Position numbers and translations under genes: made by a program
Notes under the pieces: generated by a model
The model's database searches: none
Seen by the model: the letters and a program-made list of their open reading frames with translations, nothing else
Told to the model about the DNA's origin: nothing
NCBI GenBank assembly: GCA_963791955.1
Contig: CAWBUO010000005.1
Span: forward strand, 72,467-136,466
DNA: 64,000 nt
Source: an uncultured Alphaproteobacteria bacterium
GTDB taxonomy: Bacteria; Pseudomonadota; Alphaproteobacteria; Rhizobiales; Xanthobacteraceae
Direction of reading: 5' to 3'
Shown: positions 32,953 through 64,000 of the stretch, in pieces
Layout: every line of letters starts with the position of its first letter
How positions within the stretch are numbered: position 1 is the stretch's first letter

Positions 32953-32987
32953 GATGGTTTGATCAATGCCGTCTGATGAACCCGTCG

Positions 32988-40931: not shown

Positions 40932-40977
40932 CAGAATGTTCTTCCAGTGTTGTTCTTCCGGCGCATTGGGGCCTTGA

Positions 40978-41955: not shown

Positions 41956-41978
41956 GAGCAATAAGGGGAGTGTAAGAA

Positions 41979-43058: not shown

Positions 43059-43098
43059 GTATCGCAAACTTTGGGGCTCTCCTAAATCCTGAACAGAC

Positions 43099-46490: not shown

Positions 46491-47570
46491 TCAGCGCGGC
46501 TCGCGGGCAACGATCATTTTTGGATCAACAAGCTTGCCCTTTTCAATCACGACCTGATTGTCGAGCGTGACTGAACAATCACGGAGCGGCACATCGTAAT
46601 GTCCGCGCGTCGATCGCTTGCCGCCACCTTGCGTGTTCGGTCCGGTCGAGAATAAAAAATTCCCCGGAAAGACGCGCGCTGCAGCCCGATTCCGCTCTGG
46701 GTCATCGCCGTTGAGAGCCATCCCGTACCACCGGGCCTGAGGATTTATTCCCCACCCCAAGTGGGAGATGGCGTAAGGGTCCTGATCGCCGTCGCTGTTT
46801 TTTCCGTCTTCGAGCCAATCGCGCATGAGCTTGGCGTCGAGGCCGCCATCGATATTGACGATATGGCCCTCACGCACTTCAAGCGTCACGCGGTCGGTCA
46901 CATAACGGCAGTAGGGGAGAATGATGATATCCCCGGGAGCAAACACGACCCTGCCATTGGCGCTGCCTTCATTAGGGAAGGTGTGGATGTGGCCGGCGCC
47001 CCAGTGATCGAAATGCCCCTTTTCGTCCGCAAAACCCCATTGGGTCATCACTGGATATTCGCCACACTCATAGCTGAGGTCGGTGCCGGCTTCGCTTGTC
47101 ACTCGAACTTTTCGCGTTCGCCCATAAATACCCTCGGCATACTTCATCGCGTCCTTAAGTCCTTTTGGCGATAGAAGCTGGTCGAGATCATCCGGAGCGT
47201 CGATGATCATAAGTACGCGTGTGCCGCCATCCATCACTTCCTTGAGCCATTTGGTGAACAGCGGTACGTGGAAAATGACAATCAGGTCTGCTTCCTTTAC
47301 GGCTGCAAGCGTGCCTTTGCACTGGCCGATCGTAGGAACTCCGACCTTAGTCCATCCAGGAATGGAGTTTACGCACATTTCATAGATGTCGGCTCCAAGC
47401 TCGTCGGCCGCACCGAACGCGGACTGAATGTACTCCCGCCGCGTGCCGAGGTCGCTCACGATTGCGATAGTCTCGCCGCGTTGCACCTTCGACATTTCGA
47501 ATTGCTTCCGATAGAGCGAGGTAAGGCGTCCCGGATTGAGCTCCTGAACCCGTATCGATGAGTGCTGCAT
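46491..47570 (-). CDS. nicX: NicX-like 2,5-dihydroxypyridine 5,6-dioxygenase (M29 aminopeptidase-fold), paralog 1
   Basis: PYAISHLGWGI and GNFLFSTGPNTQGGGKRSTRGHYDVPLRDC. As I recall it, P. putida NicX has GISHIGWGL and GNFLFSTGPNTEVGGKRKTPCHLDIPLRNC. Confidence 0.75.
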   Translation of the reverse strand: MQHSSIRVQELNPGRLTSLYRKQFEMSKVQRGETIAIVSDLGTRREYIQSAFGAADELGADIYEMCVNSIPGWTKVGVPTIGQCKGTLAAVKEADLIVIFHVPLFTKWLKEVMDGGTRVLMIIDAPDDLDQLLSPKGLKDAMKYAEGIYGRTRKVRVTSEAGTDLSYECGEYPVMTQWGFADEKGHFDHWGAGHIHTFPNEGSANGRVVFAPGDIIILPYCRYVTDRVTLEVREGHIVNIDGGLDAKLMRDWLEDGKNSDGDQDPYAISHLGWGINPQARWYGMALNGDDPERNRAAARVFPGNFLFSTGPNTQGGGKRSTRGHYDVPLRDCSVTLDNQVVIEKGKLVDPKMIVAREPR

Positions 47571-47706
47571 GACCCTAGGCTCTCAGCGGTTTGAGTGATA
47601 TGCCAATAATGAATAAGGCTCGGGTTTGAAAGTCAAGAGTTCTCGTTGCGACCAAAACTTGAGCGGCGCCGGTCTTGTGCGACCGCCATAATTGACAGGT
47701 TTCGTC

Positions 47707-48546: not shown

Positions 48547-49275
48547 TTAGCAGCTCGGACCCAGCTCGCGCGTGCCGGGATAATATGTTCTTGCGAAGGC
48601 CGGCCGTTGTTGCAAGCGCGCGAACCAATCGATGACATGAGGCAAATCGGCCCAGAGATGGGTTAGATCGAGATCCTGCATCCTCACCACACTCGGCATG
48701 ATGCTTATGTCGGCGAGCGTGAACATGTCGTTGGCAAGCCACTGTGTTTGGCTAAGCGATCGCTCCATTCTCTCAAGCGTTTGTCGCAGCCGATCTAGCG
48801 CCGCGTCGATCTCGTCTTTTGAAAACCCGGTTCGCCCCATCTTCAGATAGAAGTGCTTTCGTAAGGGAAGCCGCTCCACGTAAGCGCGGAATTGCTCGTC
48901 TGTCATACCGGACCAGATAGGTACGAAGAACGAATTGAAAGACGGGTACCGGATCGATGTTGTCGGTACCTCGTCAATGTACTGGCGCCATGCCCGCATG
49001 TGCGCGAGTTCGACTGGATTGATCGGACGCAGCGGATGCTCTGGGAAAACATCGTCTATGTATTCGTTGATCACCGACGAATCGCCGATCACGTTGCCGT
49101 TGTGAACTAACGTGGGCACGACACCGTTCGGATTGAGTTTGAGGTACCAATCGGAGAGATGATCGTTTCGGGCGAAGAAGATAATGCGGTCCGTCCAGGG
49201 TAGGTCTTTTTCGATCAGCGCCATACGCACTTTTTGACTGCACGTTGAAACCGGTGAGTTATAAAGTTCGATCAT
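48547..49275 (-). CDS. Glutathione S-transferase family protein
   Basis: MIELYNSPVSTCSQKVRMAL...NPNGVVPTLVHNGNVIGDSSVINEYI (thioredoxin-like GSH site); last gene of the hydroxylase operon. Confidence 0.8.
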   Translation of the reverse strand: MIELYNSPVSTCSQKVRMALIEKDLPWTDRIIFFARNDHLSDWYLKLNPNGVVPTLVHNGNVIGDSSVINEYIDDVFPEHPLRPINPVELAHMRAWRQYIDEVPTTSIRYPSFNSFFVPIWSGMTDEQFRAYVERLPLRKHFYLKMGRTGFSKDEIDAALDRLRQTLERMERSLSQTQWLANDMFTLADISIMPSVVRMQDLDLTHLWADLPHVIDWFARLQQRPAFARTYYPGTRELGPSC

Positions 49276-49337
49276 GGCCTGCGCTGTAACGGGTGTTGAG
49301 TGCAAACGCGCGTTTAGATTACGCGTGTCGCCTACAT

Positions 49338-51656
49338 TCAGCTCATAGGAGCCTTCGGCTGGCCGGTTTCCAGCATCGCGGTAAGGATCCGCTCAGGTGT
49401 CAGCGGCAGCCGGCGCAATCTGATTCCGGTGGCAGCGGTAACGCCGTTAGCGATAGCGGGAGCAACCGAGCAGATTGGGATCTCACCAATTCCCTTGGCA
49501 CCGAACGGACCGTCCGGTTCCGGATCTTCTATCAATAGCGGATGGATCTGATGCGGAACGTCGAGGGTCGTCGCGATCTTGTAGTCCATCAGGCTAGGAT
49601 TGGCGATCCGGGGGCCGTCCCACACCATTTCTTCAAACAACGCGAATCCCAATCCTTGGACAAAGCCGCCCTGAATTTGACCTTCGACCGACATCGGATT
49701 AATGGCCTTGCCGACATCACAAGCCGACCATGCTTCCAGCACCGTGGTCTTGCCGGTTGCTTCGTCGATTTCCACGTCGCAAACAACCGTATTGAATGAG
49801 AAAACGCCGATCTGCGGGAACGGTAGGCCGCTGGCAATCGTACGTTTCGGATCGATTGTCGGCTTGTTGTAGATGAGGCTTTCCGCGCCGATGATCGGCC
49901 CGCCGGCGGCCCAGTGTGCGCGGAGGGAAACATCCTGAAACGTGAGTTCCTTTTGCGGTATGCCGACTATACCGACGCGCCCGCCTTGGCGTAATTCCAG
50001 ATCAGCAACGCCACATTCCAGCATATCGGCAGCATGTTCTTTGATTTTGTGCGCGACCTCGTTGGCCGCGCCGACAACCGCACGCCCGGTCATGTAGGTG
50101 ACGCGACTTGCGGTCGTGCCCCAGTTGAACGGTGAGCCATCGGTGTCAGGGCTTGCGAGCGCAACATTGGCGACCGGAATTTGGAGCGCCTCGGCGCAAA
50201 TCTGCGGCAGCACCGTATCCGAGCCCTGACCGATATCAACGGCACCGGTATTGAGCACGACCGTGCCGTCCTCCAGCAGGCGGATGATTGCGCCAGTCGC
50301 GAGTAGTCCGCAGATATGCGCCGTTGAGGCAACGCCAAGCGCGCGCCGTCGACCCGGAGCGACCGTCAGGCTTTGGCGTTCATCCCAACGTGAGGCGCGA
50401 CGGGCGCTGTGCAGGGATTTGATGAATCCGTCGGAATGGATCGCGCCGCCGCCGACCCATTGGTCGCCAGCGCGCACGGCGTTTTTCTCCCGGAGGTCAA
50501 TTGGATCAATGCCAAGCCTTGCCGCGATCTCGTCGATTTGGACCTCGGTCGCAAAGGTCACCTGCGGATTGCCGAAACCGCGGAAAGCGCCGAAGCGAAG
50601 CTTGTTGGTGTAAAAAAGCCGTCCCAATGACCGGAAATTGGCGATACGGTACGGTCCGCGCGCCATCCATAGGGAAAAGCCCATAACGCCGGGGCTATCG
50701 TCCCCGTATGCACCGCAATCGATGACCGCCTCAACCTCGCGGGCAACTAGCGTGCCGTCCCTGAGCGCACCGGTCTTGGCGCGAATTTTATAGGGGTGTC
50801 TCAGGCGTACGAGCTCGAAGTCCTCTTCGCGGCTAAGCACCATTTTAACTGGTTTGCCGGTCGCGAGGGCGAGCGCTGCGGCCATGCCTTGAACGTGCAT
50901 TTCCATCTTGTTGCCGAAGCCGCCGCCAACCCGCGGCGTGACGCAACGCACCCTAGACATCGGCAAGCCGAGCGCGTCACAAACATTTGCCTGAACCCGA
51001 AACACCGACTGGTTTGCCGACCAGATCGTAACCCGACCGGCAGCATCGATCTCTGCCAAAGCCCCACACGGCTCGATGGCTACATGGGCTTGCGCCTGGG
51101 TCTCAAATTCGTTTTCCACGATGACGTCACAGGTTGCCCAAGCGGCATCCACGTCTCCCTCAGAAAATCGGCATTCCCACGCCAGGTTGCCGCCACACTC
51201 GGTTTCAAAAATGCGGAAGTTCTTAGTGTTGTCGTCGTGGACTAGGGGCGCGCCGGGAGCCATCGCTTCCTCTGGGCTGAGTACGGCGGAGAGCTCCTCG
51301 TAGGTCACATCTATGAGCTGCGCGGCACGCCGCGCCGTCGCTTCATCTTCAGCCGCCACTAGACATACGGCTTCGCCAACGAAACGCACCTTCTGTTTGG
51401 CGAGAACGCATTCGTCCTTGATGAAGGGGCCAAATTTCCCATTTGCGACATCGTTTCCTGTGAGAACGCAGGCGACGCCTGGAACCGCAAGTGCAGCCGA
51501 GATGTCGTATGACAAGATCCGGGCGTGCGCATAGGGGCTTTTGAGGATGGCTCCGTGCAGCATTCCAGGTCGGTAAATGTCGGCGATGTAAGTCGCACGC
51601 CCGCTGGTTTTCTCAGCGGCGTCAAGACGCGGGAGATTTCGCCCGACCTCTTTCAT
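49338..51656 (-). CDS. Xanthine dehydrogenase-family molybdopterin-binding large subunit
   Basis: 772 aa with the GAFRGFGNPQ motif (XDH type). The CODH-type AYRCSFR and AYRGAGR motifs are absent. Confidence 0.9.
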   Translation of the reverse strand: MKEVGRNLPRLDAAEKTSGRATYIADIYRPGMLHGAILKSPYAHARILSYDISAALAVPGVACVLTGNDVANGKFGPFIKDECVLAKQKVRFVGEAVCLVAAEDEATARRAAQLIDVTYEELSAVLSPEEAMAPGAPLVHDDNTKNFRIFETECGGNLAWECRFSEGDVDAAWATCDVIVENEFETQAQAHVAIEPCGALAEIDAAGRVTIWSANQSVFRVQANVCDALGLPMSRVRCVTPRVGGGFGNKMEMHVQGMAAALALATGKPVKMVLSREEDFELVRLRHPYKIRAKTGALRDGTLVAREVEAVIDCGAYGDDSPGVMGFSLWMARGPYRIANFRSLGRLFYTNKLRFGAFRGFGNPQVTFATEVQIDEIAARLGIDPIDLREKNAVRAGDQWVGGGAIHSDGFIKSLHSARRASRWDERQSLTVAPGRRRALGVASTAHICGLLATGAIIRLLEDGTVVLNTGAVDIGQGSDTVLPQICAEALQIPVANVALASPDTDGSPFNWGTTASRVTYMTGRAVVGAANEVAHKIKEHAADMLECGVADLELRQGGRVGIVGIPQKELTFQDVSLRAHWAAGGPIIGAESLIYNKPTIDPKRTIASGLPFPQIGVFSFNTVVCDVEIDEATGKTTVLEAWSACDVGKAINPMSVEGQIQGGFVQGLGFALFEEMVWDGPRIANPSLMDYKIATTLDVPHQIHPLLIEDPEPDGPFGAKGIGEIPICSVAPAIANGVTAATGIRLRRLPLTPERILTAMLETGQPKAPMS

Positions 51657-52129
51657 TGGGCGACCTCACCGCCAGCGCGACAGACTGCTTCAACAATTTT
51701 GATGTAGCCTGAGCAGCGGCACAGGTTTCCGGATAGAGCTGCCCTTGCCTCATCGGCACTCGGATGCGGATTTTGGCGCAGTAGCGAGTGTGCGGAAACA
51801 AGTACTCCCGAGGTGCAAAAGCCACACTGCACTGCGCCATTCTCGGTCAGAGCCTGCTGCAGGGGAGCGAGTTCGCGGGTCTGAGCCAAACCTTCAACCG
51901 TCGTGATCGGCCGATCCACCAGGTTCACCGCTAGCGACAGGCAGCTGCGGACAGGCTGGTCGGCCACAAGAACTGTACACGCCCCGCAAACGCCCTGGTT
52001 GCAGCCCCGCTTCGCGCCGGTTAAGGCAAGCTCATCACGTAAAACGGTGAGTAGTGTCGTGGTTGGCATCGCACGGACACTGCGTCGGCGGCCATTGATG
52101 GTGAGATTCACAAGTTGTTCGCCGTTCAC
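51653..52129 (-). CDS. (2Fe-2S)-binding small subunit of the molybdenum hydroxylase
   Basis: CNQGVCGACTV and CGFCTSG...CRCSGY clusters; 4-nt overlaps on both sides. Confidence 0.9.
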   Translation of the reverse strand: MNGEQLVNLTINGRRRSVRAMPTTTLLTVLRDELALTGAKRGCNQGVCGACTVLVADQPVRSCLSLAVNLVDRPITTVEGLAQTRELAPLQQALTENGAVQCGFCTSGVLVSAHSLLRQNPHPSADEARAALSGNLCRCSGYIKIVEAVCRAGGEVAQ

Positions 52130-52983
52130 GGCTCGTCTCCGATAGCGGCCCGAGCGCGCCGGATGGTCTTTGCAAGCAGCCGGGGAATGACTCGCCGCCG
52201 GTAGTCGGCGCTGGCACGAACATCATCGACTGGATCGCATGCCGCCGCCAGGATGTCGCCAGCCGCTTCGATTGCCGCATCTTCGAGACGACTGCCTTCA
52301 AGTAATTTTTCGGCTTCGCTCCGCCGCACCGGACCCGGGGCACATGCCCCAATCGCCACGCGCGCGACACGGCATACGTCATGTTCCATCGCCAAAATCA
52401 CCGCGACCGAAACGACAGCGAAATCGCCTGCTGTGCGTTCGAGTTTTTCAAACACACCGACGGTTCCTTCGGGCGCAGGAGGAACCACGACACGGATAAT
52501 AATATCAGCAGGAGCCAGCACGGTCGTGTACCAGTCGACGATCAGCTCGTTGATCGGCACAGTTCGGGGACCGCTTGCTGAAGCCACCTCGATTGCCGCA
52601 TCGATCGCCGCCAGAGCCGGCAAATAATCCGCTGCTGGATCGGCGAAGGCGAGAGAGCCGCCGATTGTTCCCATATTGCGGACCGGTACATTGGCGATCT
52701 TTACCGCGGCCGCGGGCAACACTCTTTGGCCGCTGCGAAAGACTCTCGAGCGCGATGTTTCAACATGACGGGTCATTGCGCCGATCTGCACGGATCCATC
52801 AGGCGAAACCGTTATTCCGGTAAGGTCGTGGAGGTCAGCGAGACTGACCAGGCCAGACGGCTCTACTAAGCCCGCGTTCATCATAGCAACAAGTGTCGCG
52901 CCACCCGCTAGGCAGCGCGCGCCATCATGTTGAGTGAGAAACGACACGGCTTCGGCAACACTTGTTGGTCGGTAAAAATCCAT
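52126..52983 (-). CDS. FAD-binding medium subunit of the molybdenum hydroxylase (CoxM-like)
   Basis: MDFYRPTSVAEAVSFL...RCLAGGATLVAMMNAGL (FAD_binding_5 pattern). Confidence 0.85.
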   Translation of the reverse strand: MDFYRPTSVAEAVSFLTQHDGARCLAGGATLVAMMNAGLVEPSGLVSLADLHDLTGITVSPDGSVQIGAMTRHVETSRSRVFRSGQRVLPAAAVKIANVPVRNMGTIGGSLAFADPAADYLPALAAIDAAIEVASASGPRTVPINELIVDWYTTVLAPADIIIRVVVPPAPEGTVGVFEKLERTAGDFAVVSVAVILAMEHDVCRVARVAIGACAPGPVRRSEAEKLLEGSRLEDAAIEAAGDILAAACDPVDDVRASADYRRRVIPRLLAKTIRRARAAIGDEP

Positions 52984-52989
52984 CGGCGT

Positions 52990-53451
52990 TCACGTTACGG
53001 GGGAAGGAGCTTCGACGCGCGCCTTGAATGCCGCGGCGAAATCGCGACCCAGACTTTCAGCCTTTTTCTTCATCACGCCGAGGCCAAATTTCCCGAGCCG
53101 ACCGACGACCGAAACCTCGGAAGCATAACTGACTTCTGTTTCGTTCGGACTTCGCTCTACGAGGCGCAAGATATTCTCGGCCGAGATCGAGCTGGCACGG
53201 CTGCCTTCTTCCCCACGCGTGCGCGACCGCAATTCTTCGGGTGGCTTCTGCGCAGTCAGTTCTACGTCGACGTTAAAGTCCGCTTTGATGACCCCCAATT
53301 GCACCCGGACCTTGGCCTTGTAAAGCGTCGGGCTCGATACTGTGACGCCCTGGCATCCCGGGACACAAGGCGCGACAACGGCTGGATCGATTATTGCAGC
53401 CCAGACTCGCTCGCGCGGCGCGGCGACGATGAATCGGTCCTCAATGCGCAT
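52990..53451 (-). CDS. CoxG-like SRPBCC protein (putative fourth hydroxylase component)
   Basis: MRIEDRFIVAAPRERVWAAIIDPAVVAPCVPGCQGV...VVGRLGKFGLGVMKKKAESL. Confidence 0.8.
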   Translation of the reverse strand: MRIEDRFIVAAPRERVWAAIIDPAVVAPCVPGCQGVTVSSPTLYKAKVRVQLGVIKADFNVDVELTAQKPPEELRSRTRGEEGSRASSISAENILRLVERSPNETEVSYASEVSVVGRLGKFGLGVMKKKAESLGRDFAAAFKARVEAPSPVT

Positions 53452-53461
53452 GGTTAGGCCC

Positions 53462-54544
53462 TTACCGAGCCTGGCGCGGGACTATCATCGCGGGATCCGT
53501 TAGGCGGCCCGCTGCGATGATCGTTTTGCCGTCAAGTTCGACGGTACAGCCGCGCATCGGTACGTCATAATGGCCACGAGTCGAACGATTGCCGCCTCCT
53601 TGAGTGTTCGGACCAGTGGAAAAAAGGAAGTTGCCCGGGAATACCCGGGCCGCGGCCCGATTGCGCTCAGGCTGGTCGCCATGCAAACCCATCCAATACC
53701 AGCGAGCCTGAGGATTCATGCCCCAGCCGAGATGAGACAGCGCGTACGGATCGCGGTCATCTTCGCTGGCTTTTCCATCTTCGAGCCACTCGCGCATCAG
53801 ATTGGCATCGAGACCGCCATCGAGATCGACAATGTGCCCGTCGCGAATTTTGAGTCGGATCGGATCGGTAACGTAGCGGCAATAGGGGAGAATGATCATG
53901 TCCCCGGGGGAGATCGTGACTGTCCCCTGTGCCGAGCCTTCATTCGGGAAAGTGTGAATGTGACCGGCACCCCAAAGGTCGAAATGGCCAGGTTCGTCTG
54001 CGTAGCCCCACTGCGTCATAACTGGATATTCGCCGCACTCATACGCCAAATCCGTGCCGTCAGAACGAGTGACACGCACGCGGCGTGTTTTGCGATAAAG
54101 CGACTCAGCGTACTTCATAGCCTCCTTCAAGCCGGGCGGCGACATCAGTTCCTCAAGATCATCGGGCGCATCATGGACCATCAGCACACGCGTGCCGCTC
54201 TCCATCACCTTCTTCAGCCACGATGTGAAAAGCGGAATGTGGAAGATCAGCACCATGTCGGCCGCACAGAGTGCTTCAAGCGTTCCTTTGCAGCGGCCAA
54301 TTGTCGGAACACCCACCTTCGTCCAGGAGGGGGTCGTGCTCACTGTCATTTCATAAATATCCGCGCCAAGTTCGTTTGCCGCGACGAAGGCTGCTTCAAC
54401 GTATTCCTGCCTCGTTGCGAGATCGCTTACGACCGCGATCGTCTCACCCTTCGTCACTCGGCAGAGCTCGAGTTGTTGTCGAAACAATCCTGGCAACTGA
54501 GCAGGATTAAGTTCTTGGGGCCGCCGTGCCGCTTCGACGCGCAT
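53462..54544 (-). CDS. nicX: NicX-like 2,5-dihydroxypyridine 5,6-dioxygenase, paralog 2 (first gene of the hydroxylase operon)
   Basis: PYALSHLGWGM and GNFLFSTGPNTQGGGNRSTRGHYDVPMRGC. Long identical runs with paralog 1 (GADIYEM, TKVGVPTIG, ECGEYPVMTQWG, WGAGHIHTFPNEGSA). Start MRVEAARRPQELNP aligns with the paralog 1 N-terminus. Confidence 0.75.
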   Translation of the reverse strand: MRVEAARRPQELNPAQLPGLFRQQLELCRVTKGETIAVVSDLATRQEYVEAAFVAANELGADIYEMTVSTTPSWTKVGVPTIGRCKGTLEALCAADMVLIFHIPLFTSWLKKVMESGTRVLMVHDAPDDLEELMSPPGLKEAMKYAESLYRKTRRVRVTRSDGTDLAYECGEYPVMTQWGYADEPGHFDLWGAGHIHTFPNEGSAQGTVTISPGDMIILPYCRYVTDPIRLKIRDGHIVDLDGGLDANLMREWLEDGKASEDDRDPYALSHLGWGMNPQARWYWMGLHGDQPERNRAAARVFPGNFLFSTGPNTQGGGNRSTRGHYDVPMRGCTVELDGKTIIAAGRLTDPAMIVPRQAR

Positions 54545-54599
54545 AGCCGAAATCCTTTCCACGCAAGATACTTCAATGTACAAATCGCTCGGAACGGGT

Positions 54600-54631
54600 G
54601 TCAATAGCGAGGGTCACTCTCTTTTTGATTT
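54600..54631 (+). promoter_or_regulatory. Operator-like motif, copy 1 (nicX2 / tetR divergent intergenic region)
   Basis: GTCAATAGCGAGGGTCACTCTCTTTTTGATTT is 30/32 identical to 60738-60769. It contains the imperfect dyad TCAA..GAGGGT-N-ACTCTC..TTGA. Confidence 0.45.
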
Positions 54632-54642
54632 GGCGGAAAGGA

Positions 54643-55269
54643 ATGGGAGGCGTGGTACAGGTCAAGAAAGCTGAGGTCCGAGACGCTATTCTCAAAAGCG
54701 CGTTTCGGCTGTTCAAGCGCAAAGGTTACATCAATACGACGACCGCGCAGATCGCCGCGGGCGCGAAGGTTTCCGAGTTTAACCTTTACATTTATTTTGG
54801 CTCAAAGTTCGAGATTTTGTTCGCGATTTGCGATCCGTGGATGCGCCAGCGTGTTCAACGTCTTGAGGATCGGCTGGGGGCAGAGACCGACCCCAGGCGG
54901 CGGTTGCAAATCATTCTCGCCACGCTGTGGCGAGAAATGCCGACCGATGACAATGGTTTTCCCAACAGCCTCATGCAAGCGCTCGCGACTACGGCCCGCC
55001 GCGAGGGCTACCGACCTGACTTGCTGCGTTGGATCGAAGAACGTGTCGAAGCCTTGATTTTGGAGTCTCTGCCCGTGTCGAGACGACGGCAGCTCGCTCG
55101 GGGGGGGCTCGCCCATCTTCTGATGATGGCGCAGGACGGCTTCGTTCTTAACCACCATCTGAATCCGGATAGCATCTGCCCGGACGCCACAGTCGACCTT
55201 GTCTGCGACCTTCTGCTCGGCAATCACGTGCAGGGGCAACTGAGTCCCAAAAGCGCTTCCATGGTTTGA
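54643..55269 (+). CDS. TetR/AcrR family transcriptional regulator (divergent from the nicX2 operon)
   Basis: RDAILKSAFRLFKRKGYINTTTAQIAAGAKVSEFNLYIYFGSKFEIL. Confidence 0.8.
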   Translation: MGGVVQVKKAEVRDAILKSAFRLFKRKGYINTTTAQIAAGAKVSEFNLYIYFGSKFEILFAICDPWMRQRVQRLEDRLGAETDPRRRLQIILATLWREMPTDDNGFPNSLMQALATTARREGYRPDLLRWIEERVEALILESLPVSRRRQLARGGLAHLLMMAQDGFVLNHHLNPDSICPDATVDLVCDLLLGNHVQGQLSPKSASMV

Positions 55270-55303
55270 CAGCAATCAGTTGCCGTCACGCTAAGCTCTT
55301 TGA

Positions 55304-56047
55304 TCAAGGCGCGGATCGAAAGGTTGCGGCCAGTTCTTTCTCCAAGCCCTTAGGATCTTCCCGCAGACGCCGTTCCAGTTCGTACGAATAGTCATGGAGC
55401 CAGATATCTTCTTCGCCGGCGACGACCGCGTCCAGGGCGCGTTCCGCTACCTCGGTTGGCGACGTCTTCACTCCCTGGAATGGTCCACTCATTACGGTGT
55501 CGACGGCCCAGGGCAGCACTAGAGCCACTTTTGTGCCCTGCGCCATCAATTCCGCGCGCACACCCTCCGATAGTCGCAGCAGTGCGGCCTTGCTGGCGCA
55601 ATACGAGCCAAGGTTCGGCAATGTCACTTTGCCGAGAATTGAAGCGACATTGATGATGGCGCTTCCGCCGAATTGCCGATGCGCCGCGAGTATCGGGGCG
55701 AACGCGCGGCACATGGCGAGCGTACCAAGATAATTCGTTTCAATCTCGCGACGAGCTGATGCCATTGAAGGCGCGGCTATAAAAGGGGCCCGGAGATTCA
55801 CGCCCGCATTGTTGATAAGGAGTTGAACATCAGAGGCGGATTTCGCTGCCCCCGCGGTCGATGCCTCGTCAGTAATGTCAAGATCCACAGGAACGATGCG
55901 CGAATCTGCGACCGCGTCATCATTTCTTCCTGGCAGATCCGCCGCATAAACGCGGCGAGCGCCACGTTTTATTAGAGCGGCGACAAAGCATCTCCCGATG
56001 CCGCCGTGCGCGCCAGTAACGAAGGCGGTTGTCCCTGCGATGTCCAT
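55304..56047 (-). CDS. SDR family oxidoreductase
   Basis: TGAHGGIG, NNAG and YCASK. The internal start MDIAGTTAFVTG was chosen because the long upstream extension overlaps the ATPase gene. Confidence 0.85.
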   Translation of the reverse strand: MDIAGTTAFVTGAHGGIGRCFVAALIKRGARRVYAADLPGRNDDAVADSRIVPVDLDITDEASTAGAAKSASDVQLLINNAGVNLRAPFIAAPSMASARREIETNYLGTLAMCRAFAPILAAHRQFGGSAIINVASILGKVTLPNLGSYCASKAALLRLSEGVRAELMAQGTKVALVLPWAVDTVMSGPFQGVKTSPTEVAERALDAVVAGEEDIWLHDYSYELERRLREDPKGLEKELAATFRSAP

Positions 56048-56060
56048 CTTTCTTGGCCCC

Positions 56061-56780
56061 TCAAATTCCCATATAGGCGGAACGCACCCTCGGATCCTGT
56101 GATAGTGCGTCAGCGGCGTCAGAAAGAACAATGCGACCGTTTTCCATGACATGTCCTGTTGCAGCGAGCGCCAGCGCCTGCGGGACATTTTGCTCGGCCA
56201 TAAGAATGGTGAACCCACGTGCGGCTAAGTCCGCGACGGTGCGATAAATGGTCGAGCACATCGCTGGCGCCAGACCCAGTGTCGGTTCGTCGAGCAGCAG
56301 CAATTCCGGCCGCGACATCAGCCCGCGTGCAATTGCCAACATTTGCTGCTCACCACCGGACAAAGTACCAGCCGACTGTCGAGAACGCTCCGCGAGTCGC
56401 GGGAACAGTGCATACATTTCCTCCAGACGCTCCGATAAGCCGCTCCGCCCACGCCGCGTGATGCCGCCGAGGCGCAAATTTTCCGCTACGTTCAATCCGG
56501 GAAATACCAGCCGTCCTTCGGGCACAAGTGCGATGCCGCGTTCGACCCGTTCGTTTGGAGCGAGCCTTGTTATGTCGGTTCCCGCCACCACGATGCGTCC
56601 GGCAATCGGCGGCAAAAGGCCGGCGATGCTGCGCATCAGAGTTGTCTTTCCGGCGCCGTTAGCGCCCAGAAGCGCGGTGATACGACCTTTCGGGGCATCC
56701 AGCGAAACACCGTGTAGAATGCGGACGTGTCCGTATCCTGCTTCAAGGTTACTGATTTCAAGCATCGCCATGACTGCCAA
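56061..56780 (-). CDS. ABC transporter ATP-binding protein (LivF-like)
   Basis: GANGAGKTT, LSGGEQQ, LLLLDEPT. The exact start is uncertain (three Met codons within the first 6 codons). Confidence 0.85.
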   Translation of the reverse strand: MAVMAMLEISNLEAGYGHVRILHGVSLDAPKGRITALLGANGAGKTTLMRSIAGLLPPIAGRIVVAGTDITRLAPNERVERGIALVPEGRLVFPGLNVAENLRLGGITRRGRSGLSERLEEMYALFPRLAERSRQSAGTLSGGEQQMLAIARGLMSRPELLLLDEPTLGLAPAMCSTIYRTVADLAARGFTILMAEQNVPQALALAATGHVMENGRIVLSDAADALSQDPRVRSAYMGI

Positions 56781-57486
56781 AATAGACGCGCGATACCTCC
56801 GCCTCCTCGGCGATGATCTGGGGCGGGCCCTCTGCTATTCTTTGCCCGAGATGCAGCACTACAATTCGATCAGAAAGTGCCATCAAGGCGCGCATCACAT
56901 GTTCGATAACGATCAGCGTTAGCCCAAGATCACTCCGGAGCATGCGCACGATTTCAACCATTTCGACGACTTCGAGCGGCGTGAGCCCGGCCATCACCTC
57001 GTCGAGCATTACGAGTTTGGCGCCGGTCGCTATAGCGCGGGCAATCTCTAATCGTTTCTGTCCTGAAAGCGTAAGCTCGCTTGCCAAATCACCGGCACGA
57101 TCGAGCAAATTGACAATTCTCAGCGCATCGCGCGCGGCCGCATCGACCTGACGCGCTGCGCTGAGCGAGCGTGCGCCGAAGCGTGCGGCGGTAGCGGCGT
57201 TCTCCAAGACGGTAAGGCCTAGGAAAGGTCGGACGACCTGAAAGGTCCTGGCAATCCCGCGGCGCGCGATTTGATCGGGGCGCAGGCCGAGCAATGACTC
57301 CCCCTGCCAAAAGATCTCGCCGGCATTGGGACGCGTGTTGCCTGCGATCACGGCGAATAGGGTGGTCTTACCAGCGCCGTTTGCGCCCATCAGCCCGACG
57401 ATTTCGGCAGGTCTAACTTGGAAGCTCACGTCTTCGAGCGCAGTGACGCCGCCGAACCGCTTCGAAATGTTGCGCAGTTCCAACAT
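56758..57486 (-). CDS. ABC transporter ATP-binding protein (LivG-like)
   Basis: GANGAGKTT, LSGQKRLEIARA, LVMLDE. Confidence 0.85.
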   Translation of the reverse strand: MLELRNISKRFGGVTALEDVSFQVRPAEIVGLMGANGAGKTTLFAVIAGNTRPNAGEIFWQGESLLGLRPDQIARRGIARTFQVVRPFLGLTVLENAATAARFGARSLSAARQVDAAARDALRIVNLLDRAGDLASELTLSGQKRLEIARAIATGAKLVMLDEVMAGLTPLEVVEMVEIVRMLRSDLGLTLIVIEHVMRALMALSDRIVVLHLGQRIAEGPPQIIAEEAEVSRVYFGSHGDA

Positions 57487-57489
57487 CGG

Positions 57490-58386
57490 TCAGCGTGCTC
57501 GCCTGATTAGGCCGCTTAGACCTTCGGGAAGGAAACGAACGAAGATTAACAATAGAATGCCGAGGATCAGCATGTAACCTTGTGGTGCGACATCCCAGAG
57601 TAGTTCGGACAATCCGGTGAGGAGAGCCGCTCCGAGCACTGGCCCGCGGAGGTCGTCCGAGCCACCGATGATGGTCATCGCTATCATCGAAAACGAAATC
57701 ATGGGGTCGAAAGCGGTGCTTGGTTCGAAATAAGTGGCTCGGAGCGCCATGACGCCGCCAACCGATCCCGGGATGGCAGCCGAGATTACGAATGCGGTGA
57801 GCTTATAGCGGGCGGCGGGAACGCCGAGGGTTTCCGCGGCTTCCTCGTCTTCCCGCAGTGCGCGTAACCCATGCCCGAGCCTGTTCGACCGCACGGCGGC
57901 GCCAACGAGTGTGGCGATCAAGGCTAAGCCCAGCAGGACATAGAAGATTACGATCGGGTCGGGCGCGCCAAGGATTAGCCGGCTAGCGTGTCCGAGCGCG
58001 GCTTCGATTGCGATTAACGTGTATTTGACCAACTCCGCGATACCGAATGTCAGAATGACAAAATATGGCCCGCGAACTCGTAACACCGGCAGGCCGATCA
58101 CGAATGCAAAAGCAGCGGCGAGGAGTGCGGCCAGCATTAACGCGAGCGGCAGAGGAACTACGTTCCAGGTTATTACTACCAAATACGCGCCGAGCCCGTA
58201 GAACACCACGTGGCCAAGCGAAATGTATCCGGAGAGCGCAGACAGAACTGCCCAGCTTTGCGCCAGTGCGATCGCCGCCATCAACGATATGCTGAACCCG
58301 ATCCAGTAATCGGTGGTAAAGGCCCCAGTCACTGCAACTGCGGCAAGGCCAGCCAGGATGAGGCCGAGGTCGAGCGACAGCCTCAT
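57490..58386 (-). CDS. Branched-chain amino acid-type ABC permease (LivM-like)
   Basis: Hydrophobic; LSGYISLGHVVFYGLGAY; 4-nt overlap with the upstream permease gene. Confidence 0.85.
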   Translation of the reverse strand: MRLSLDLGLILAGLAAVAVTGAFTTDYWIGFSISLMAAIALAQSWAVLSALSGYISLGHVVFYGLGAYLVVITWNVVPLPLALMLAALLAAAFAFVIGLPVLRVRGPYFVILTFGIAELVKYTLIAIEAALGHASRLILGAPDPIVIFYVLLGLALIATLVGAAVRSNRLGHGLRALREDEEAAETLGVPAARYKLTAFVISAAIPGSVGGVMALRATYFEPSTAFDPMISFSMIAMTIIGGSDDLRGPVLGAALLTGLSELLWDVAPQGYMLILGILLLIFVRFLPEGLSGLIRRAR

Positions 58387-59276
58387 CGGGCGATCTTGCC
58401 ACGTCCAAAAAATCCTTGAGGGCGAAACAGCAGAACGCCCACGAATACGCCGTAGAGCAGGATGGAGTGCCAGGTCGACGACGTCAGTGCAACGCCGTAG
58501 GTTTCAATCAGACCGAGGACTATCGCAGCAACGATGCCTCCGCCAAAACTGCCTAGGCCGCCCATAATCACCACGACAAAGGCTGCAATGGTGAAGGGAA
58601 ATCCCATGAACGGGGTGACCTGATCGCTCATTGAGATGAGCGTTCCGGCAACGGCAGCGGACCCAAAGCCGACGACAAAGCTCGCAGTCTGCACCATGTC
58701 GATATCAACACCCACTATGGCGGCGGCCTCACGATCCTCGATTAAACCGCGAATGGCGAGGCCCCACGGGTGCCAGCGTAGGAACAGGAACACTGTGGTG
58801 ATCAGCGCAAGCGCGATCACCGCAGCTGCGAGCCGGTTTTCGGTTAGGGACACGTTGCCGACGCTGATCACTCGGTCGAGGTACTGATAGCCACGCGGCG
58901 TCGACGTAAACAGAAGGGCGACCCCGTTCTGCAAAATGATCGACAAGCCAAAGAACATCAACAACGAGTTTGATTCCAGCTGAGCGGTTCGCCGTCGCTC
59001 GAGCAGCATTCGGCGGAACAGACCCCTGTAGGCGGCTATGCCCAAGAAACTCGCCACCGCTGCGGTGAGAAAAAGTGACAGCAGCGGCGACAGACCCCAC
59101 AGCGTGAAGAGCCAGTAACCCCCGTAGCCACCGAGCATGACAAGATCGCCATGCGCGACGTTCAGCAAGCGCATGGTGCCGTAAACGAGGTTCAAGCCCA
59201 GCGCGACCAGCGCAAAGTTCGCAGCCGCTATTAACGCCGCAGCGGCAAGTTGGCCCGACAGCAGCGTGTTAATCAC
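58383..59276 (-). CDS. Branched-chain amino acid-type ABC permease (LivH-like)
   Basis: GTG 59276 gives VINTLLSGQLAAAALIAAANFALVALGLNLVYGTMRLLNVAHG. The 39-codon upstream extension is not protein-like. Confidence 0.8.
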   Translation of the reverse strand: MINTLLSGQLAAAALIAAANFALVALGLNLVYGTMRLLNVAHGDLVMLGGYGGYWLFTLWGLSPLLSLFLTAAVASFLGIAAYRGLFRRMLLERRRTAQLESNSLLMFFGLSIILQNGVALLFTSTPRGYQYLDRVISVGNVSLTENRLAAAVIALALITTVFLFLRWHPWGLAIRGLIEDREAAAIVGVDIDMVQTASFVVGFGSAAVAGTLISMSDQVTPFMGFPFTIAAFVVVIMGGLGSFGGGIVAAIVLGLIETYGVALTSSTWHSILLYGVFVGVLLFRPQGFFGRGKIAR

Positions 59277-59451
59277 GCGCGGATGGCCTCCATGCCGGGC
59301 GTTGCGGTGTGGTACAACATGCAAGCGGTCCAATTTGAAACCCCATGCTCGGATCAGCATGAGATGCAAAGTGTTCAACGAGCCGCACGACAAACGCGGC
59401 CTAACAGCTCGCGTACGTTAAAGTAGTAACTCTACCGAGAGGAGGTGTAGG

Positions 59452-60636
59452 TCAGTATCCTTTTTTAGGCTGCCACTGGGCAACGGCATCGTTCGGAGGC
59501 CAAATCTGTTGAGGCACACCGTTTTGGACCTGCAAAAAGCCAGCCGGTGTTACCAAGTTTTCGACGCCGGTAAACTGGATCGGACCGATAATGGTATCGA
59601 ACCGACCGTGAGCGATGGTATCGCGCAGCTTCTCTCGATCAAGACCGGCTACCTTTACAGCATCGGCCAGTATTTGGAGAGAGTTGTATGCCTCGATGCT
59701 GTCGAGATAGTCCGGCAGCTCCTTAACCTTCGCGATATAAGCGTCGTTGAAGGCTTGTGCCGCTGCATTGCGCTTTGGCGACCATTGCCCCATGGTGACG
59801 ATACCATCCGCGGCGGTGCCGAGCACCTTGTGGAAGAAGTCTGCGCCGGGACCGACTAGGCAGAACTGGAATGGCGAGGGGATGCCAAGCTCCTTTGCCG
59901 TGTGCACATAGGCTACAGAGTCTGGCGGATAGGCCAGCGCGATAACGCCGTCCGGCGCCGCCTGTTTCACCTTGCTCAATAGTGCTGTCATATCAGTTAG
60001 GCTTGGCGGATACTCCTCGTTAACCCGCACTTCGATTCCCTGTTCCTTCAACGTCGGTTCGAGATAGCCCTTCACCTCTTTGGTGAAGTCCAGCACATTC
60101 GAGATCAGAGCGATGGATTTAATGTTGCTTGCCTTGAGCAGCAACGGCAGTTGTTTGCCAACGTGGTCGGGGAAGTCCGCCGTGACAAACCAAATGTATC
60201 CAGGTTTTAGCTTGCGCAGCTCCGCGGACGCGGCGGAATTGCCGATCAATGGGAACTTGAAACGCTCGACCACAGGCGCGATTCCGATGTGCATCGAGGT
60301 GCCCCACGGGGCGAGTAGCAAATCTACTTTATCGTCAGTAATAAGTTTCTCGTAAATTTTGGCCGCCTGACCCGGGTTACCTTGATCGTCATACGACACG
60401 AACTCGATCGGCCGCTTTTGTCCAGCAACATTCAGGCCGCCGGCGCCGTTCACCTGGTCTTTCCAGAAATTATAGGTATCGACCTGCGACTGAGCCGCGG
60501 CGGCAAACATGCCGGTTTTAGCGATGGAAAAACCAAGCCGTACTGGCTTATCGGCGGAATAAAGAAGACTCGTACCTGTCACAGAGGCGGCGCTGGCTGC
60601 GGCGACGGTTGTCAGGAATTCACGACGGGTCGTCAT
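59452..60636 (-). CDS. ABC transporter substrate-binding protein (LivK/Peripla_BP_6 type) with Tat-like signal
   Basis: MTTRREFLTTVAAASAASVTGTSLLYSA; first gene of a six-gene minus-strand run. Confidence 0.85.
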   Translation of the reverse strand: MTTRREFLTTVAAASAASVTGTSLLYSADKPVRLGFSIAKTGMFAAAAQSQVDTYNFWKDQVNGAGGLNVAGQKRPIEFVSYDDQGNPGQAAKIYEKLITDDKVDLLLAPWGTSMHIGIAPVVERFKFPLIGNSAASAELRKLKPGYIWFVTADFPDHVGKQLPLLLKASNIKSIALISNVLDFTKEVKGYLEPTLKEQGIEVRVNEEYPPSLTDMTALLSKVKQAAPDGVIALAYPPDSVAYVHTAKELGIPSPFQFCLVGPGADFFHKVLGTAADGIVTMGQWSPKRNAAAQAFNDAYIAKVKELPDYLDSIEAYNSLQILADAVKVAGLDREKLRDTIAHGRFDTIIGPIQFTGVENLVTPAGFLQVQNGVPQQIWPPNDAVAQWQPKKGY

Positions 60637-60737
60637 CGGTAAGCTCCTCCTCGGTTGACTATTCACTCTTCCGGTGCCTTAGTTCTGCTCAGCGCGTGAG
60701 TGGCCTCTAATAACTCTACTAATCGCATTTGTTCAAT

Positions 60738-60769
60738 GTCAATAGAGAGGGTTACTCTCTTTTTGATTT
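60738..60769 (+). promoter_or_regulatory. Operator-like motif, copy 2 (between the transporter operon and amidohydrolase 2)
   Basis: GTCAATAGAGAGGGTTACTCTCTTTTTGATTT. It lies ~100 nt upstream of the SBP gene start (minus strand) and ~370 nt upstream of 61143 (plus strand). Confidence 0.45.
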
Positions 60770-61142
60770 TTTGTAATGGTGTTAGACGTAGCTCTCCTCC
60801 GACGTTCAAGTGCGCCGGCGCGTAGATTCTTCTAGAGCACTTCGACCGACCTCGTGCCCGTAAAGCTGGAGATCAAACGTATTGTCCAGGTTGAACTTTC
60901 GCTTGGAAAGTTGAGCAATGTGTCAATGGGAGATCAACGGTCGTCCGCTTTGGTACCAGACTAGGGCGATGGATCGGGGCTGAAGGCCGTGACAATAATC
61001 ACAGCAGAGAACGTGCCCTAACAATTTCCCCTCAGAAATACAGTCTCGCACAGCTAGAAGCGCGCTACGGATTTGCAATAAACTCGTCCGGCGAGTTTGC
61101 GGGCAGTCTATCAATGCACTAGCGCGCGACAGGGGATACAGA

Positions 61143-62657
61143 ATGCAACCGTCCAAAACTCTATTGCTAAAGGGCGGACGAGTATTTGATATTTCCACCC
61201 ATCCGCACGACGCGCCGGTCGCGGATATCCTAATCAGAGACGGAAGGGTGGTCGAAGTTGGAGCAGCGCTACGCTTCGACGAGCGGGCCGATACGCCGGC
61301 AATAATCGACGTTAGCGGCAAGCTCGTCGTCCCGGGATTTATTAACGCACATTATCATTCGCACGATACCTTTCTCAAAGGCTGCTTTGATCCATCGGTG
61401 CTTGAATTTTGGGCGCTCAATGCTCTGCCGCGCGCTTATCCGCCGCGCAGCAGCCAGGAGATCCGGCTGCGAACATTGCTCGGCGCTGTCGAATGCATTC
61501 GTGGCGGGATCACCACTGTGCAAGATATGCTCACGCTCTATCCGCTCACGGCCGAGCAAGTCGACGAGGTTCGCCGCGCCTACGATGATTCCGGCTTGAG
61601 GGTGATCCTTGGGCTCCAGGTCAGCGATGTGTCGCCACTCGATACGGTTCCTTACTGGCGCGACGTCATACCAGCCGAGTTGCAATCCACCTTAATGGGC
61701 GACCCGCCCGCGGCGGCAACCGATCCGATCGCGGTTATGGAAACAATTTTCGATAAGCCCGATCCAGACTCGCTTGTTCGGTGGGCGGTCTCGCCGTCCA
61801 GCCCAGAGCGCTGTAGCCGATCACTCATTGAGCGATTGTCGGATTTAGCCAAGCGATTCGATCTTCCGGTCTACTCGCATATCTACATCTCGCGCGCGGA
61901 GGCGCTTAACGCGCGCCTGAACTTCAAGGAGTTCGGCGGGTCGATGATCGAGTACCTACAAAGGGTGGGATTGCTTGGTCCAAAACTTACGCTTGCGCAC
62001 GGCGTTTGGCTCGATGAATCGGAAATCGAGAAGATCGCGGCGGCGAAGGCGAGCGTGGTTCTGAACCCGCTCAGCAATCTCAAAAACAAGAACGGCGTGG
62101 CGCCGATTCGTACGATGATTGCGGCGGGCGTCAACCTTGCGCTGGGCTGCGACAATTGCAGTTGCTCCGACGCCCAGAACATCTTTGAGGCCATGAAGCT
62201 GTTCACTTACCTCGCAGCGGTCAGCAATCCGGAAGAAGGTCCGCCGAACGCGATCGACGCTCTCCACGCCGCCACCATTGGTGGAGCGCACACGGCTGGC
62301 TTGGCGCAGGAGATGGGCGAAATCCGTCCGGGAATGCTGGCGGATATCGTAGTTCTCGATGCCAATGATCCGACCTATGTGCCGTTCAACAGCGCGGCGC
62401 GGCAGATCGTTTACGGCGAGAGCGGACGCGGCGTCGAGACCGTGATCGTCGCCGGGCGTGTCGTCATGCGTGATCGAGTTATCCAAACGGTGAATGAGCC
62501 AGCGCTACGTGCTGAGCTTGGCCAAGTCCTGCCGCAGTTCCGAAAGGATGCCGAGGTGGTGAATACTCGTACCGCTCGGCTCCGTCCGTACATCTTGGAA
62601 AGCGACCGAAAAATGTGGTCGCAGAATGTCGGTATGGATCGTTACGTTAGCCGTTGA
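61143..62657 (+). CDS. Amidohydrolase superfamily, ATZ/TRZ / aminohydrolase-chlorohydrolase type (copy 2)
   Basis: VVPGFINAHYHSHDTF (HxH), VYSHIYIS, LAHGVWL, LALGCDN. Confidence 0.8.
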   Translation: MQPSKTLLLKGGRVFDISTHPHDAPVADILIRDGRVVEVGAALRFDERADTPAIIDVSGKLVVPGFINAHYHSHDTFLKGCFDPSVLEFWALNALPRAYPPRSSQEIRLRTLLGAVECIRGGITTVQDMLTLYPLTAEQVDEVRRAYDDSGLRVILGLQVSDVSPLDTVPYWRDVIPAELQSTLMGDPPAAATDPIAVMETIFDKPDPDSLVRWAVSPSSPERCSRSLIERLSDLAKRFDLPVYSHIYISRAEALNARLNFKEFGGSMIEYLQRVGLLGPKLTLAHGVWLDESEIEKIAAAKASVVLNPLSNLKNKNGVAPIRTMIAAGVNLALGCDNCSCSDAQNIFEAMKLFTYLAAVSNPEEGPPNAIDALHAATIGGAHTAGLAQEMGEIRPGMLADIVVLDANDPTYVPFNSAARQIVYGESGRGVETVIVAGRVVMRDRVIQTVNEPALRAELGQVLPQFRKDAEVVNTRTARLRPYILESDRKMWSQNVGMDRYVSR

Positions 62658-62664
62658 AACGGAA

Positions 62665-63381
62665 TCAAACGCCGAGATACCGGTGGCGCATGTCAGCGTC
62701 GGAGCGCAAGGCTTCCGGAGCTGTGTCCAAGGCTATGCGGCCCTTATCCATAAGATAAATTCGCTGTGCAATCGCCAGCGCAAAGCCGAGCCGTTGTTCT
62801 GCGATCAGAAGACTAACGCCTTCATTGTGCAACGTGCGCAGCAGGTCCTGCAGCTCTTTGACCATTATCGGCGAAAGCCCCTCGGTCGGCTCGTCGAGCA
62901 GGATCATACTCGGGTTGCTGACTAACGCGCGAGCCGTGACCAGCATTTGTTGTTCACCGCCCGACAAGGTCTCGGAGCGTTGATCACGACGTTCGGCGAG
63001 CCGCGGAAACAATCGGTAGGCGCGATCGATGGACCAAACTTGTCCGAGTGTGCCGACGGATTTTGGGCGTGCGGCGACTTTGAGTGTCTCGTTGACAGTC
63101 AGTGAGCGGAAGATTCGACGGCCTTGCGGTACCAGCGCCATGCCGGCCTGGATGATGCGTTCGGGTGAGTGGCCGGAAATGTTCTTGCCGCAAAAGGAAA
63201 CTCGTCCGCGGGTGGGTGGGGTAAACGCAACAATGGAACGTATCAGCGTTGTTTTGCCGACGCCGTTCCTCCCGAGAACTGCGACGGTTTCGCCCGCTCG
63301 CACAGTCAGCGACACGCCCTGAAGGACGTAGCTGGCGCCGTAATAGGTGTGAATGTCTTCGACCTGCAATATCGAAGTCAT
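62665..63381 (-). CDS. ABC transporter ATP-binding protein (LivF-like)
   Basis: GRNGVGKTT, LSGGEQQ, MILLDEPT. Confidence 0.85.
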   Translation of the reverse strand: MTSILQVEDIHTYYGASYVLQGVSLTVRAGETVAVLGRNGVGKTTLIRSIVAFTPPTRGRVSFCGKNISGHSPERIIQAGMALVPQGRRIFRSLTVNETLKVAARPKSVGTLGQVWSIDRAYRLFPRLAERRDQRSETLSGGEQQMLVTARALVSNPSMILLDEPTEGLSPIMVKELQDLLRTLHNEGVSLLIAEQRLGFALAIAQRIYLMDKGRIALDTAPEALRSDADMRHRYLGV

Positions 63382-64000
63382 TCGCTAACTTCACCTAAAT
63401 AGATTGCTTGGATTTCCGGCTCGGAATGAATTGCAGCAGCATCACCCTCGGCGATGACTCTACCGCGGTTCATCACGGTGAAAGTTTCGCCGATCTCGAA
63501 GGCCACCCTCATGTCGTGCTCGATCATTATGATGGTTACGTCGCGGCCAAGCGTCTTGATCAGCGCGACGAGACTGGCGGTCTCGCTCGTGGACAGCCCC
63601 GCGGTCGGCTCGTCGAGAAGCAATACGCGTGGCCGATGAACCAATGCCATCGCAATCTCGAGTTTGCGCTGTGTGCCGTATGACAGGTCTCCGACTAGGG
63701 CTCGCCGGTCGCTGTCAAGTTGCCACTGGGCAAGCACAGCTTCGACATGGTCTTTAGCTTCGGCAAAAGTTTCTGCGTTGCGCAAGAGATTATAGCGGTG
63801 CGGCAGAATTCCCTGAACTGCGAGATAGATATTTTCCTCAACTGATTGGTTGTAGAATAGAGAAGTAATTTGAAATGTCCGCGCCAATCCTGCGCGAGCC
63901 CGCCGGTATGGCGGCCACATGGTCACGTCCTGATCAAAGAAGCTGATCTGACCCTCTCGGGGCAGCAATTGCCCGCCAATCATGTTGAATAGGGTCGTTT
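63378..64000 (-). CDS. ABC transporter ATP-binding protein (LivG-like), 5' end beyond the window
   Basis: The frame stays open to the window edge and reads ...TTLFNMIGGQLLP (end of Walker A). LSYGTQRKLEIAMAL, VLLLDEPT. Confidence 0.85.
   Translation of the reverse strand, partial: TTLFNMIGGQLLPREGQISFFDQDVTMWPPYRRARAGLARTFQITSLFYNQSVEENIYLAVQGILPHRYNLLRNAETFAEAKDHVEAVLAQWQLDSDRRALVGDLSYGTQRKLEIAMALVHRPRVLLLDEPTAGLSTSETASLVALIKTLGRDVTIIMIEHDMRVAFEIGETFTVMNRGRVIAEGDAAAIHSEPEIQAIYLGEVSE

Follow-up and report, generated by a model that had tools for sequence, protein, structure and literature searches.

Classical members of the TetR family (PF00440), as represented by TetR/tetO and QacR/IR1, share a common layout in which regulator and target genes are transcribed divergently, a palindromic operator occupies the spacer between them, and the regulator carries a C-terminal ligand domain. 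A comparable layout is described here for a 64-kb stretch of DNA (hereafter the window: 64,000 nucleotides of contig CAWBUO010000005.1 from an uncultured Xanthobacteraceae bacterium), in which a 33-nt motif occurring twice is probably the operator of a TetR repressor that would bind over the −35 box of two operons, nicX2-coxG-hydroxylase-GST and SBP-LivHMGF-SDR, encoding a catabolic enzyme system and a transporter, respectively. Described systems of related function come from the degradation of N-heterocycles. NicR2 of Pseudomonas putida S16 is a TetR-family repressor of nicotine/pyridine-ring catabolism that responds to a pathway intermediate and acts at the promoters Phsp and Pspm, the −35 box of which is TTGACA; similar 20-bp inverted repeats at the two promoters cover the −35 and −10 boxes, with two dimers bound per operator (PMC6550519). 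NdpR of Sphingomonas melonis TY is a TetR-family repressor of the ndp nicotine operons, with a footprinted site, TTTATACAAGCGGATAATTGATTG, spanning −3 to −26 and with an AraC-family partner, NdpR2 (PMC13599538). With respect to the enzymes, the 3hpd cluster of Ensifer adhaerens HP1 encodes HpdA, a four-component 3-hydroxypyridine dehydrogenase, together with a GntR-family regulator (bioRxiv 10.1101/2020.01.08.898148).

The motif in the window reads TGTCAATAG[C/A]GAGGGT[C/T]ACTCTCTTTTTGATTT, and its two copies, both on the plus strand, are identical at 31 of 33 positions, the two differences (54608, C/A; 54615, C/T) falling in columns that also vary among orthologs. The copies, the adjacent regulator gene, and the two putative target operons are located as follows.

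54599..54631, plus strand: motif copy 1 (33 nt), in the divergent nicX2/tetR intergenic region, kept upstream of tetR in 14 fetched loci.
60737..60769, plus strand: motif copy 2 (33 nt), upstream of the SBP-LivHMGF-SDR operon, with equivalents in loci L003, L091, L092, L094, and L095.
54652..55269, plus strand: tetR, encoding a 205-aa TetR/AcrR-family regulator (PF00440, E 5.5e-12, residues 16-62), with a conserved GTG start.
48547..54544, minus strand: target operon 1, comprising nicX2, coxG (SRPBCC), the FAD, 2Fe-2S, and Mo subunits of a molybdenum (Mo) hydroxylase, and a GST-like gene, assigned by NicX homology and synteny.
55304..60636, minus strand: target operon 2, comprising a periplasmic binding protein (SBP), LivH/LivM permeases, LivG/LivF ATPases, and an SDR oxidoreductase, assigned by Pfam, NCBIfam, and synteny.

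An earlier note on this DNA had described the copies as 32-mers, 30/32 identical, in the same orientation, and both intergenic; these 32-mers were confirmed on the plus strand, copy 1 does lie between nicX2 and tetR, and a repeat finder lengthened the pair to 33 nt by an extra shared T on the left. The nicX2-tetR spacer that contains copy 1 measures 98 bp (to ATG 54643) or 107 bp (to GTG 54652), and copy 2 precedes the SBP start (60636, minus strand) by 101 nt, with the amidohydrolase start (61143) 374 nt away on its right. When up to 3 mismatches were allowed, copies 1 and 2 were the only matches in the window, and 100 dinucleotide-preserving shuffles yielded 0 matches. A weak third match that the note had listed on the minus strand at 47671-47697 is not a member, because the only part that it shares with the motif is TGTCAAT, a TTGACA box; it scored −26 bits with the full matrix, versus 52-53 bits for the true copies, and −35 bits with the dyad alone.

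The position of the motif is conserved across relatives of the locus, which were collected by exact-protein look-ups plus a metagenome scan with a TetR alignment. The TetR homologues recovered are almost all metagenomic, and the clade of the window's TetR comes almost exclusively from soil/peat metagenomes and Stellaceae-like metagenome-assembled genomes (MAGs). Besides the 14 fetched loci in which the motif directly precedes tetR, partial copies were found at the edges of two more contigs. Furthermore, all six long syntenic contigs (the window and the five loci listed above for copy 2, whose TetR proteins are 73-81% identical to that of the window) contain exactly two matrix matches each, always one beside tetR and one upstream of the transporter operon, in constant orientation. 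Information content was calculated from 18 sites in 12 non-redundant loci, anchored on the motif, giving the following means.

Motif positions 1-28: 1.76 bits per position.
Block at −24..−12 (the −10 block): 1.40 bits per position.
Other flanks: 0.31-0.48 bits per position.

The motif is a phylogenetic footprint, with 22 of its 28 columns invariant or nearly so at both locations in taxa whose TetR is 73-97% identical to that of the window. Relatives with 57-62% TetR identity retain GAG-N5-CTC, and the arms are perfect in some of them, for example AGCGAG-GACCG-CTCGCT in L015 and GCGAG-TGCCG-CTCGC in L018. The right-hand neighbor of copy 2 varies, being an amidohydrolase gene in the window and, in other loci, a gene for an integrase, transposase, LysR regulator, or kinase. 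Thus, of the two targets that the earlier note had assigned to copy 2, the SBP-LivHMGF-SDR operon stands, its synteny being kept, and the amidohydrolase gene is dropped as not being a conserved neighbor, which leaves the minus-strand transporter operon as the only supported target.

The core of the motif is a conserved imperfect 9+5+9 palindrome, AATAGNGAG-N5-CTCNCTTTT, covering motif positions 5-27 with its center at position 16.

54603..54625, no strand: copy 1 dyad AATAGCGAG-GGTCA-CTCTCTTTT, center 54614, the putative TetR operator core.
60741..60763, no strand: copy 2 dyad AATAGAGAG-GGTTA-CTCTCTTTT, center 60752.

Across all registers, the symmetry score was highest at center 16 (8.52), a value reached by column permutation in 45 of 5000 trials, and for seven of the eight specified dyad pairs complementarity holds at all, or almost all, 18 sites; the variable columns 10 and 22 are themselves symmetric partners. 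Dyad symmetry had been anticipated in the earlier note, and is indeed found, with the register corrected: the proposed GAGGGT-N-ACTCTC, centered on position 17, scored 6.96 and has been replaced. Orthologs differ from one another at motif positions 14-17, and most of them have TTAA in place of the outer TTGA.

In each of the two regions, a promoter scan detected a single sigma-70-like promoter; both promoters are on the minus strand and have their −35 box inside the motif, the first six nucleotides of the motif being the reverse complement of TTGACA.

54604..54599, minus strand: predicted −35 box of the nicX2 operon, TTGACA (promoter scan, 10/12 matches, 18-nt spacer).
54580..54575, minus strand: predicted −10 box of the nicX2 operon, TACATT, with a predicted start near 54568.
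54587..54581, minus strand: conserved spacer block CGATTTG adjoining the −10 box of the nicX2 operon (18-site alignment).
60742..60713, minus strand: predicted promoter of the transporter operon, with −35 box TTGACA (60742..60737), 18-nt spacer, and −10 box TAGAGT (60718..60713), 10/12 matches.

The predicted start of the transporter operon is near 60706, and both predicted starts leave sensible leaders, that of nicX2 including the ribosome-binding site GGAAAGGA. At both copies, the left arm of the dyad shares 2 nt with the predicted −35 box, and the dyad is centered some 46 bp ahead of the predicted transcription start. The −35 hexamer is invariant at 17 of the 18 sites (the exception, TTGACT, being at copy 2 of L091), and the first, second, and sixth positions of the −10 hexamer (TAnnnT) are invariant at all 18, with constant spacing to the motif. 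A separate observation concerns the 7-nt spacer block directly upstream of the −10 box (CGATTTG at 54581-54587 and CGATTAG at 60719-60725, both read on the minus strand), which lies outside the dyad and shows about the same degree of conservation as the −10 box across all 18 sites; an extended −10-like contact is one possible role for it, and a site for a second factor is another.

Compared with the described systems, the locus most resembles NicR2 in its logic: one TetR-family regulator is paired with similar operators at two promoters in a pyridine-ring cluster feeding 2,5-dihydroxypyridine—binding being predicted here—and the operator overlaps sigma-70 elements with a −35 box of TTGACA, the promoters here again being predicted. 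Whereas both core boxes are covered by the NicR2 operators, the dyad here is placed upstream of the −35 box with a 2-nt overlap, and the sequences are unrelated, with CTATATGTACAGCCATATAA and TTATACCGTCGTACATATAA in the NicR2 system and AATAGNGAG-N5-CTCNCTTTT here. Indeed, no common register or half-site was found between this palindrome and the published NicR2 and NdpR sites, and no protein named NicR2 was among the PDB sequence matches of the window's TetR. With NdpR, the locus shares an alphaproteobacterial TetR and a motif common to several promoters of an N-heterocycle catabolic cluster; it differs in the sequence of the site and in having no AraC partner of the NdpR2 type. The divergent layout is that of TetR/tetO and QacR/IR1, and the ligand-binding C-terminal domain presumably mediates induction as it does there; furthermore, the length of the conserved element (23-28 bp) is like that of QacR-type sites bound by two dimers. 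In contrast to those systems, the targets are catabolic and uptake genes rather than an efflux pump, and a second operator lies 6 kb away.

The HpdA cluster resembles target operon 1 and its surroundings in architecture: the SRPBCC/CoxG, FAD, 2Fe-2S, and Mo subunits are separate, and an ABC transporter is encoded alongside genes of the 2,5-dihydroxypyridine (maleamate) pathway; the regulator is of the GntR family there and of the TetR family here. Because the architecture of the hydroxylase (48547-54544, next to nicX) matches that of HpdA, 3-hydroxypyridine or a related compound is a candidate for both the hydroxylase substrate and the inducer.

Taken from sequence comparison, the operator hypothesis of the earlier note is supported, its computationally testable predictions—specificity, conservation, dyad symmetry, and promoter overlap—all agreeing with what was observed. 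The protein that binds the motif would be the adjacent TetR, acting as a repressor; it is encoded by the only regulator gene conserved in all compared loci. In more distant TetR clades, the corresponding place is occupied by other palindromes, for example TCAATACCGA-N7-TCGGTATTGA, and the recognition helices differ (VSTAN, TSRAN, VSPGN, ITTSN, and VAPAT, versus VSESN/VSEFN), and L064 has a matched AACGA/TCGTT palindrome variant, a pattern that would fit co-evolution of the recognition helix and the operator. In the proposed mechanism, TetR, as one dimer or two, would most likely bind the palindrome when no inducer is present. With the left arm lying over part of the −35 box and of the A/T-rich region upstream, bound TetR would keep RNA polymerase off the promoters of the hydroxylase and uptake operons. 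Release of TetR would be brought about by a substrate or intermediate of the pathway, possibly a hydroxylated pyridine or a pyridine carboxylate.

Several points weigh against this repressor model. Columns 10 and 22 do not covary consistently, and the symmetry statistic is moderate (p ~0.01) and is aided by the purine/pyrimidine asymmetry of the arms. The dyad is mostly upstream of the −35 box, with its center at about −46, a position that is used by activators too. Shared descent confounds the link between TetR clade and operator type. In addition, the near-identical loci L012 and L013, together with L093 (TetR 70-71% identical), are rearranged and have no canonical motif beside tetR, being the sole exceptions among the window-clade loci with enough upstream DNA. 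As regards autoregulation of tetR, which the earlier note had also proposed and which is plausible, no sigma-70-like tetR promoter reached the threshold in a plus-strand scan, and the distance from the motif to the tetR start is not constant, ranging between 17 and 38 nt (copy 1 ends 20 nt before the conserved GTG 54652); for these two reasons autoregulation is not established. A hand-found candidate for the tetR promoter, TTTCCA-17-TACAAA at 54556-54584, matches at 8/12 positions, lacks T at position 6, and is not claimed.

A genuine regulatory site could also work in another mode, in which TetR, or another dimeric factor with its gene elsewhere, activates from about −46, or the A/T tracts serve as an UP element for the alpha subunit of RNA polymerase. 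This alternative, which owes its place to the −46 position and is judged unlikely, is favored by the dyad center at that position with just 2 nt shared with the −35 box, by a conserved T5 tract at −54 to −58, and by the imperfect −10 hexamers (TACATT and TAGAGT), which are common in activator-dependent promoters. However, the −35 box is a perfect TTGACA, usually absent from such promoters, no other regulator is conserved in the compared loci, and the T tract is accounted for by its symmetry with AATAG. TetR-family proteins are, moreover, overwhelmingly repressors. It is very unlikely that the motif acts instead at the RNA level, as a plus-strand hairpin (AGNGAG-loop-CUCUCU followed by a U run) forming an intrinsic terminator or attenuator in the tetR leader or an insulator between the divergent units. 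A terminator-like scan does flag both copies, and the hairpin of copy 2 folds better than shuffled sequences (z = −2.8), but that of copy 1 does not (z = −0.26), no co-oriented gene lies upstream of either copy, and copy 2 has no conserved genes on its right. Moreover, the stem is mismatched at positions 10/22 at most sites without consistent compensation, Rfam 15 gave no match at E ≤ 1 over 54000-61500, and it is the spacing to the minus-strand −10 box that is invariant, the spacing to tetR being variable.

The similarity of the copies could further be read as a relic of a duplicated promoter, a −35 box with hitchhiking sequence and no operator function. In different genomes, nicX is found directly behind the module at either location, and L003 retains a 5′ remnant of nicX behind copy 2; the two modules thus share ancestry by duplication. 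The −35 box alone, however, explains no more than 6 nt, and the flanks have decayed to background with 22 of the 28 motif columns still invariant or nearly so, and a relic devoid of function is therefore considered highly unlikely. Finally, the motif is almost certainly not a dispersed repeat of the REP/MITE type that fell into both spacers by accident, short, intergenic, and capable of forming a hairpin as it is. Only two copies are present in the 64-kb window and two in each syntenic contig, and a scan of 596 Gb of GTDB species-representative genomes with the degenerate pattern TCAATAGNGAGGNNNNCTCNCTTTT (~4 chance matches expected) returned six matches: two on one 19.7-kb Stellaceae MAG contig syntenic with the window, and four singletons in Nitrospiraceae or Bacteroidia MAGs, which are unrelated. 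No cluster genes were found within 8 kb of the four singletons except for a distant (27%) ABC-ATPase match in L085. A genome-wide dispersed repeat, which the earlier note had named as the finding that would speak against an operator, was accordingly not seen, the linked matches being the two copies of one syntenic contig, with matches on viral contigs unrelated. The latter (L096-L098), which lack TetR and cluster genes, are regarded as chance.

Under the operator reading, the control of enzyme and transporter operons by one switch would be ordinary bacterial regulation of a familiar architecture. The understanding of TetR-family regulation is unchanged by it, and the result is useful for an uncultured lineage rather than surprising. 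It provides a precise, testable regulon for an uncharacterized TetR clade, defining a pair of promoters, an operator core of 23 bp, and a candidate sensor for a compound of the hydroxypyridine type; it could help to assign a substrate to the HpdA-like four-subunit molybdenum hydroxylase cluster, and it could supply a regulator/operator pair for biosensor design.

With respect to the target genes, operon 1 is tightly packed, with nicX2 as its first gene on the minus strand, and runs down to 48547. The nicX2 product (53462-54544, minus strand, start ATG 54544) is a homologue of 2,5-dihydroxypyridine dioxygenase (PDB 7CN3, E 1.4e-65), and nicX1 (46491-47570) is its paralogue, with 74% nucleotide identity reported over 300 nt. 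No motif copy was found among the nicX1-amidase and hydrolase genes (44.6-48.5 kb), including the divergent nicX1/hydrolase spacer (47571-47706). These lower-pathway genes appear to be controlled separately, because the motif is absent there and only nicX2 lies behind it. The surroundings of the cluster (31705-34160, 39471-44652, and 62665-63983) contain a P450 and a VanA-like Rieske oxygenase. They also contain a second amidohydrolase, accompanied by an additional ABC transporter set, and one more LivG/LivF-like ATPase pair; none of these has the motif. A Megablast search of 53400-61200 against PLSDB gave no match, and a plasmid origin was rejected.

The placement of nicX differs among the relatives. 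It is the first gene of the hydroxylase operon in the window, L092, L094, and L095, and of the transporter operon in the Stellaceae MAG, the gene being complete behind copy 1 in the window and behind copy 2 in that MAG. Its coordinates are 11231-12310 in L091 and 15354-15536 in L003, where just a 60-aa 5′ remnant is left behind copy 2, 57% identical to the N-terminus of nicX2 (E 2.6e-12). Duplication of the nicX promoter region followed by differential loss is suggested as the origin of the two modules. A more speculative extension, held to be distinctly unlikely, is that the module is a portable promoter-operator cassette, with TetR acting from the unusual upstream position of about −46 as a positive regulator, or as a dual one that also blocks its own divergent transcript. 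The cassette may, on this view, have been used repeatedly as a landing or recombination site by which nicX moved between the enzyme and transporter operons.

Variants of the motif were observed as well. In L003 (9941-9970) and L004 (1593-1622), two independent assemblies, the tetR-proximal copy has a 1-nt deletion in the right arm (ACT-TCTTTTT), and the transporter-proximal copy of this organism is canonical. Among the distant TetR clades (L016-L075), a second operator copy was seen in L016 only, so the two-operator layout belongs to the clade of the window. The two variant copies in L016 (61% TetR identity), at 1465-1494 (minus strand) and 7959-7990, are located one in the nicX/tetR spacer and one facing a different Liv-type ABC transporter operon; thus, catabolism and uptake are coupled again in a more distant relative. 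In L022-L084, clades of the TetR subfamily at 45-60% identity have, upstream of the tetR homologues, palindromes of their own starting with TGTCAATA, for example TCAATACCGA-N7-TCGGTATTGA and TCAATAATGCATATCATTCTCTATTGA, each paired with a distinct recognition-helix sequence, and constitute a ready data set for a protein-DNA specificity code. Related phage contigs (L096, 2255-2279; L097, 1276-1300) contain TTTGTCAATAGCGAGGTATACTCGCTTTTGC, a perfect AGCGAG/CTCGCT palindrome resembling the motif, which in L096 lies inside a small phage open reading frame with no TetR gene nearby and is treated as a chance resemblance.

As for the regulator itself, the N-termini of orthologous TetR proteins align at M/V-V-Q-V-K-K, corresponding to GTG 54652, with ATG 54643 as an alternative start. 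The latter is specific to the window and is absent in L001 (97% identity). The GGAGG of the window is just 1 nt ahead of GTG 54652, which leaves the true start codon uncertain. Several TetR equivalog models gave weak matches, none above the cut-off, and the best PDB relatives are generic TetR proteins (E 5e-8), with no close solved relative. The exact TetR protein is also encoded on a short Logan metagenome contig (ERR11594405).

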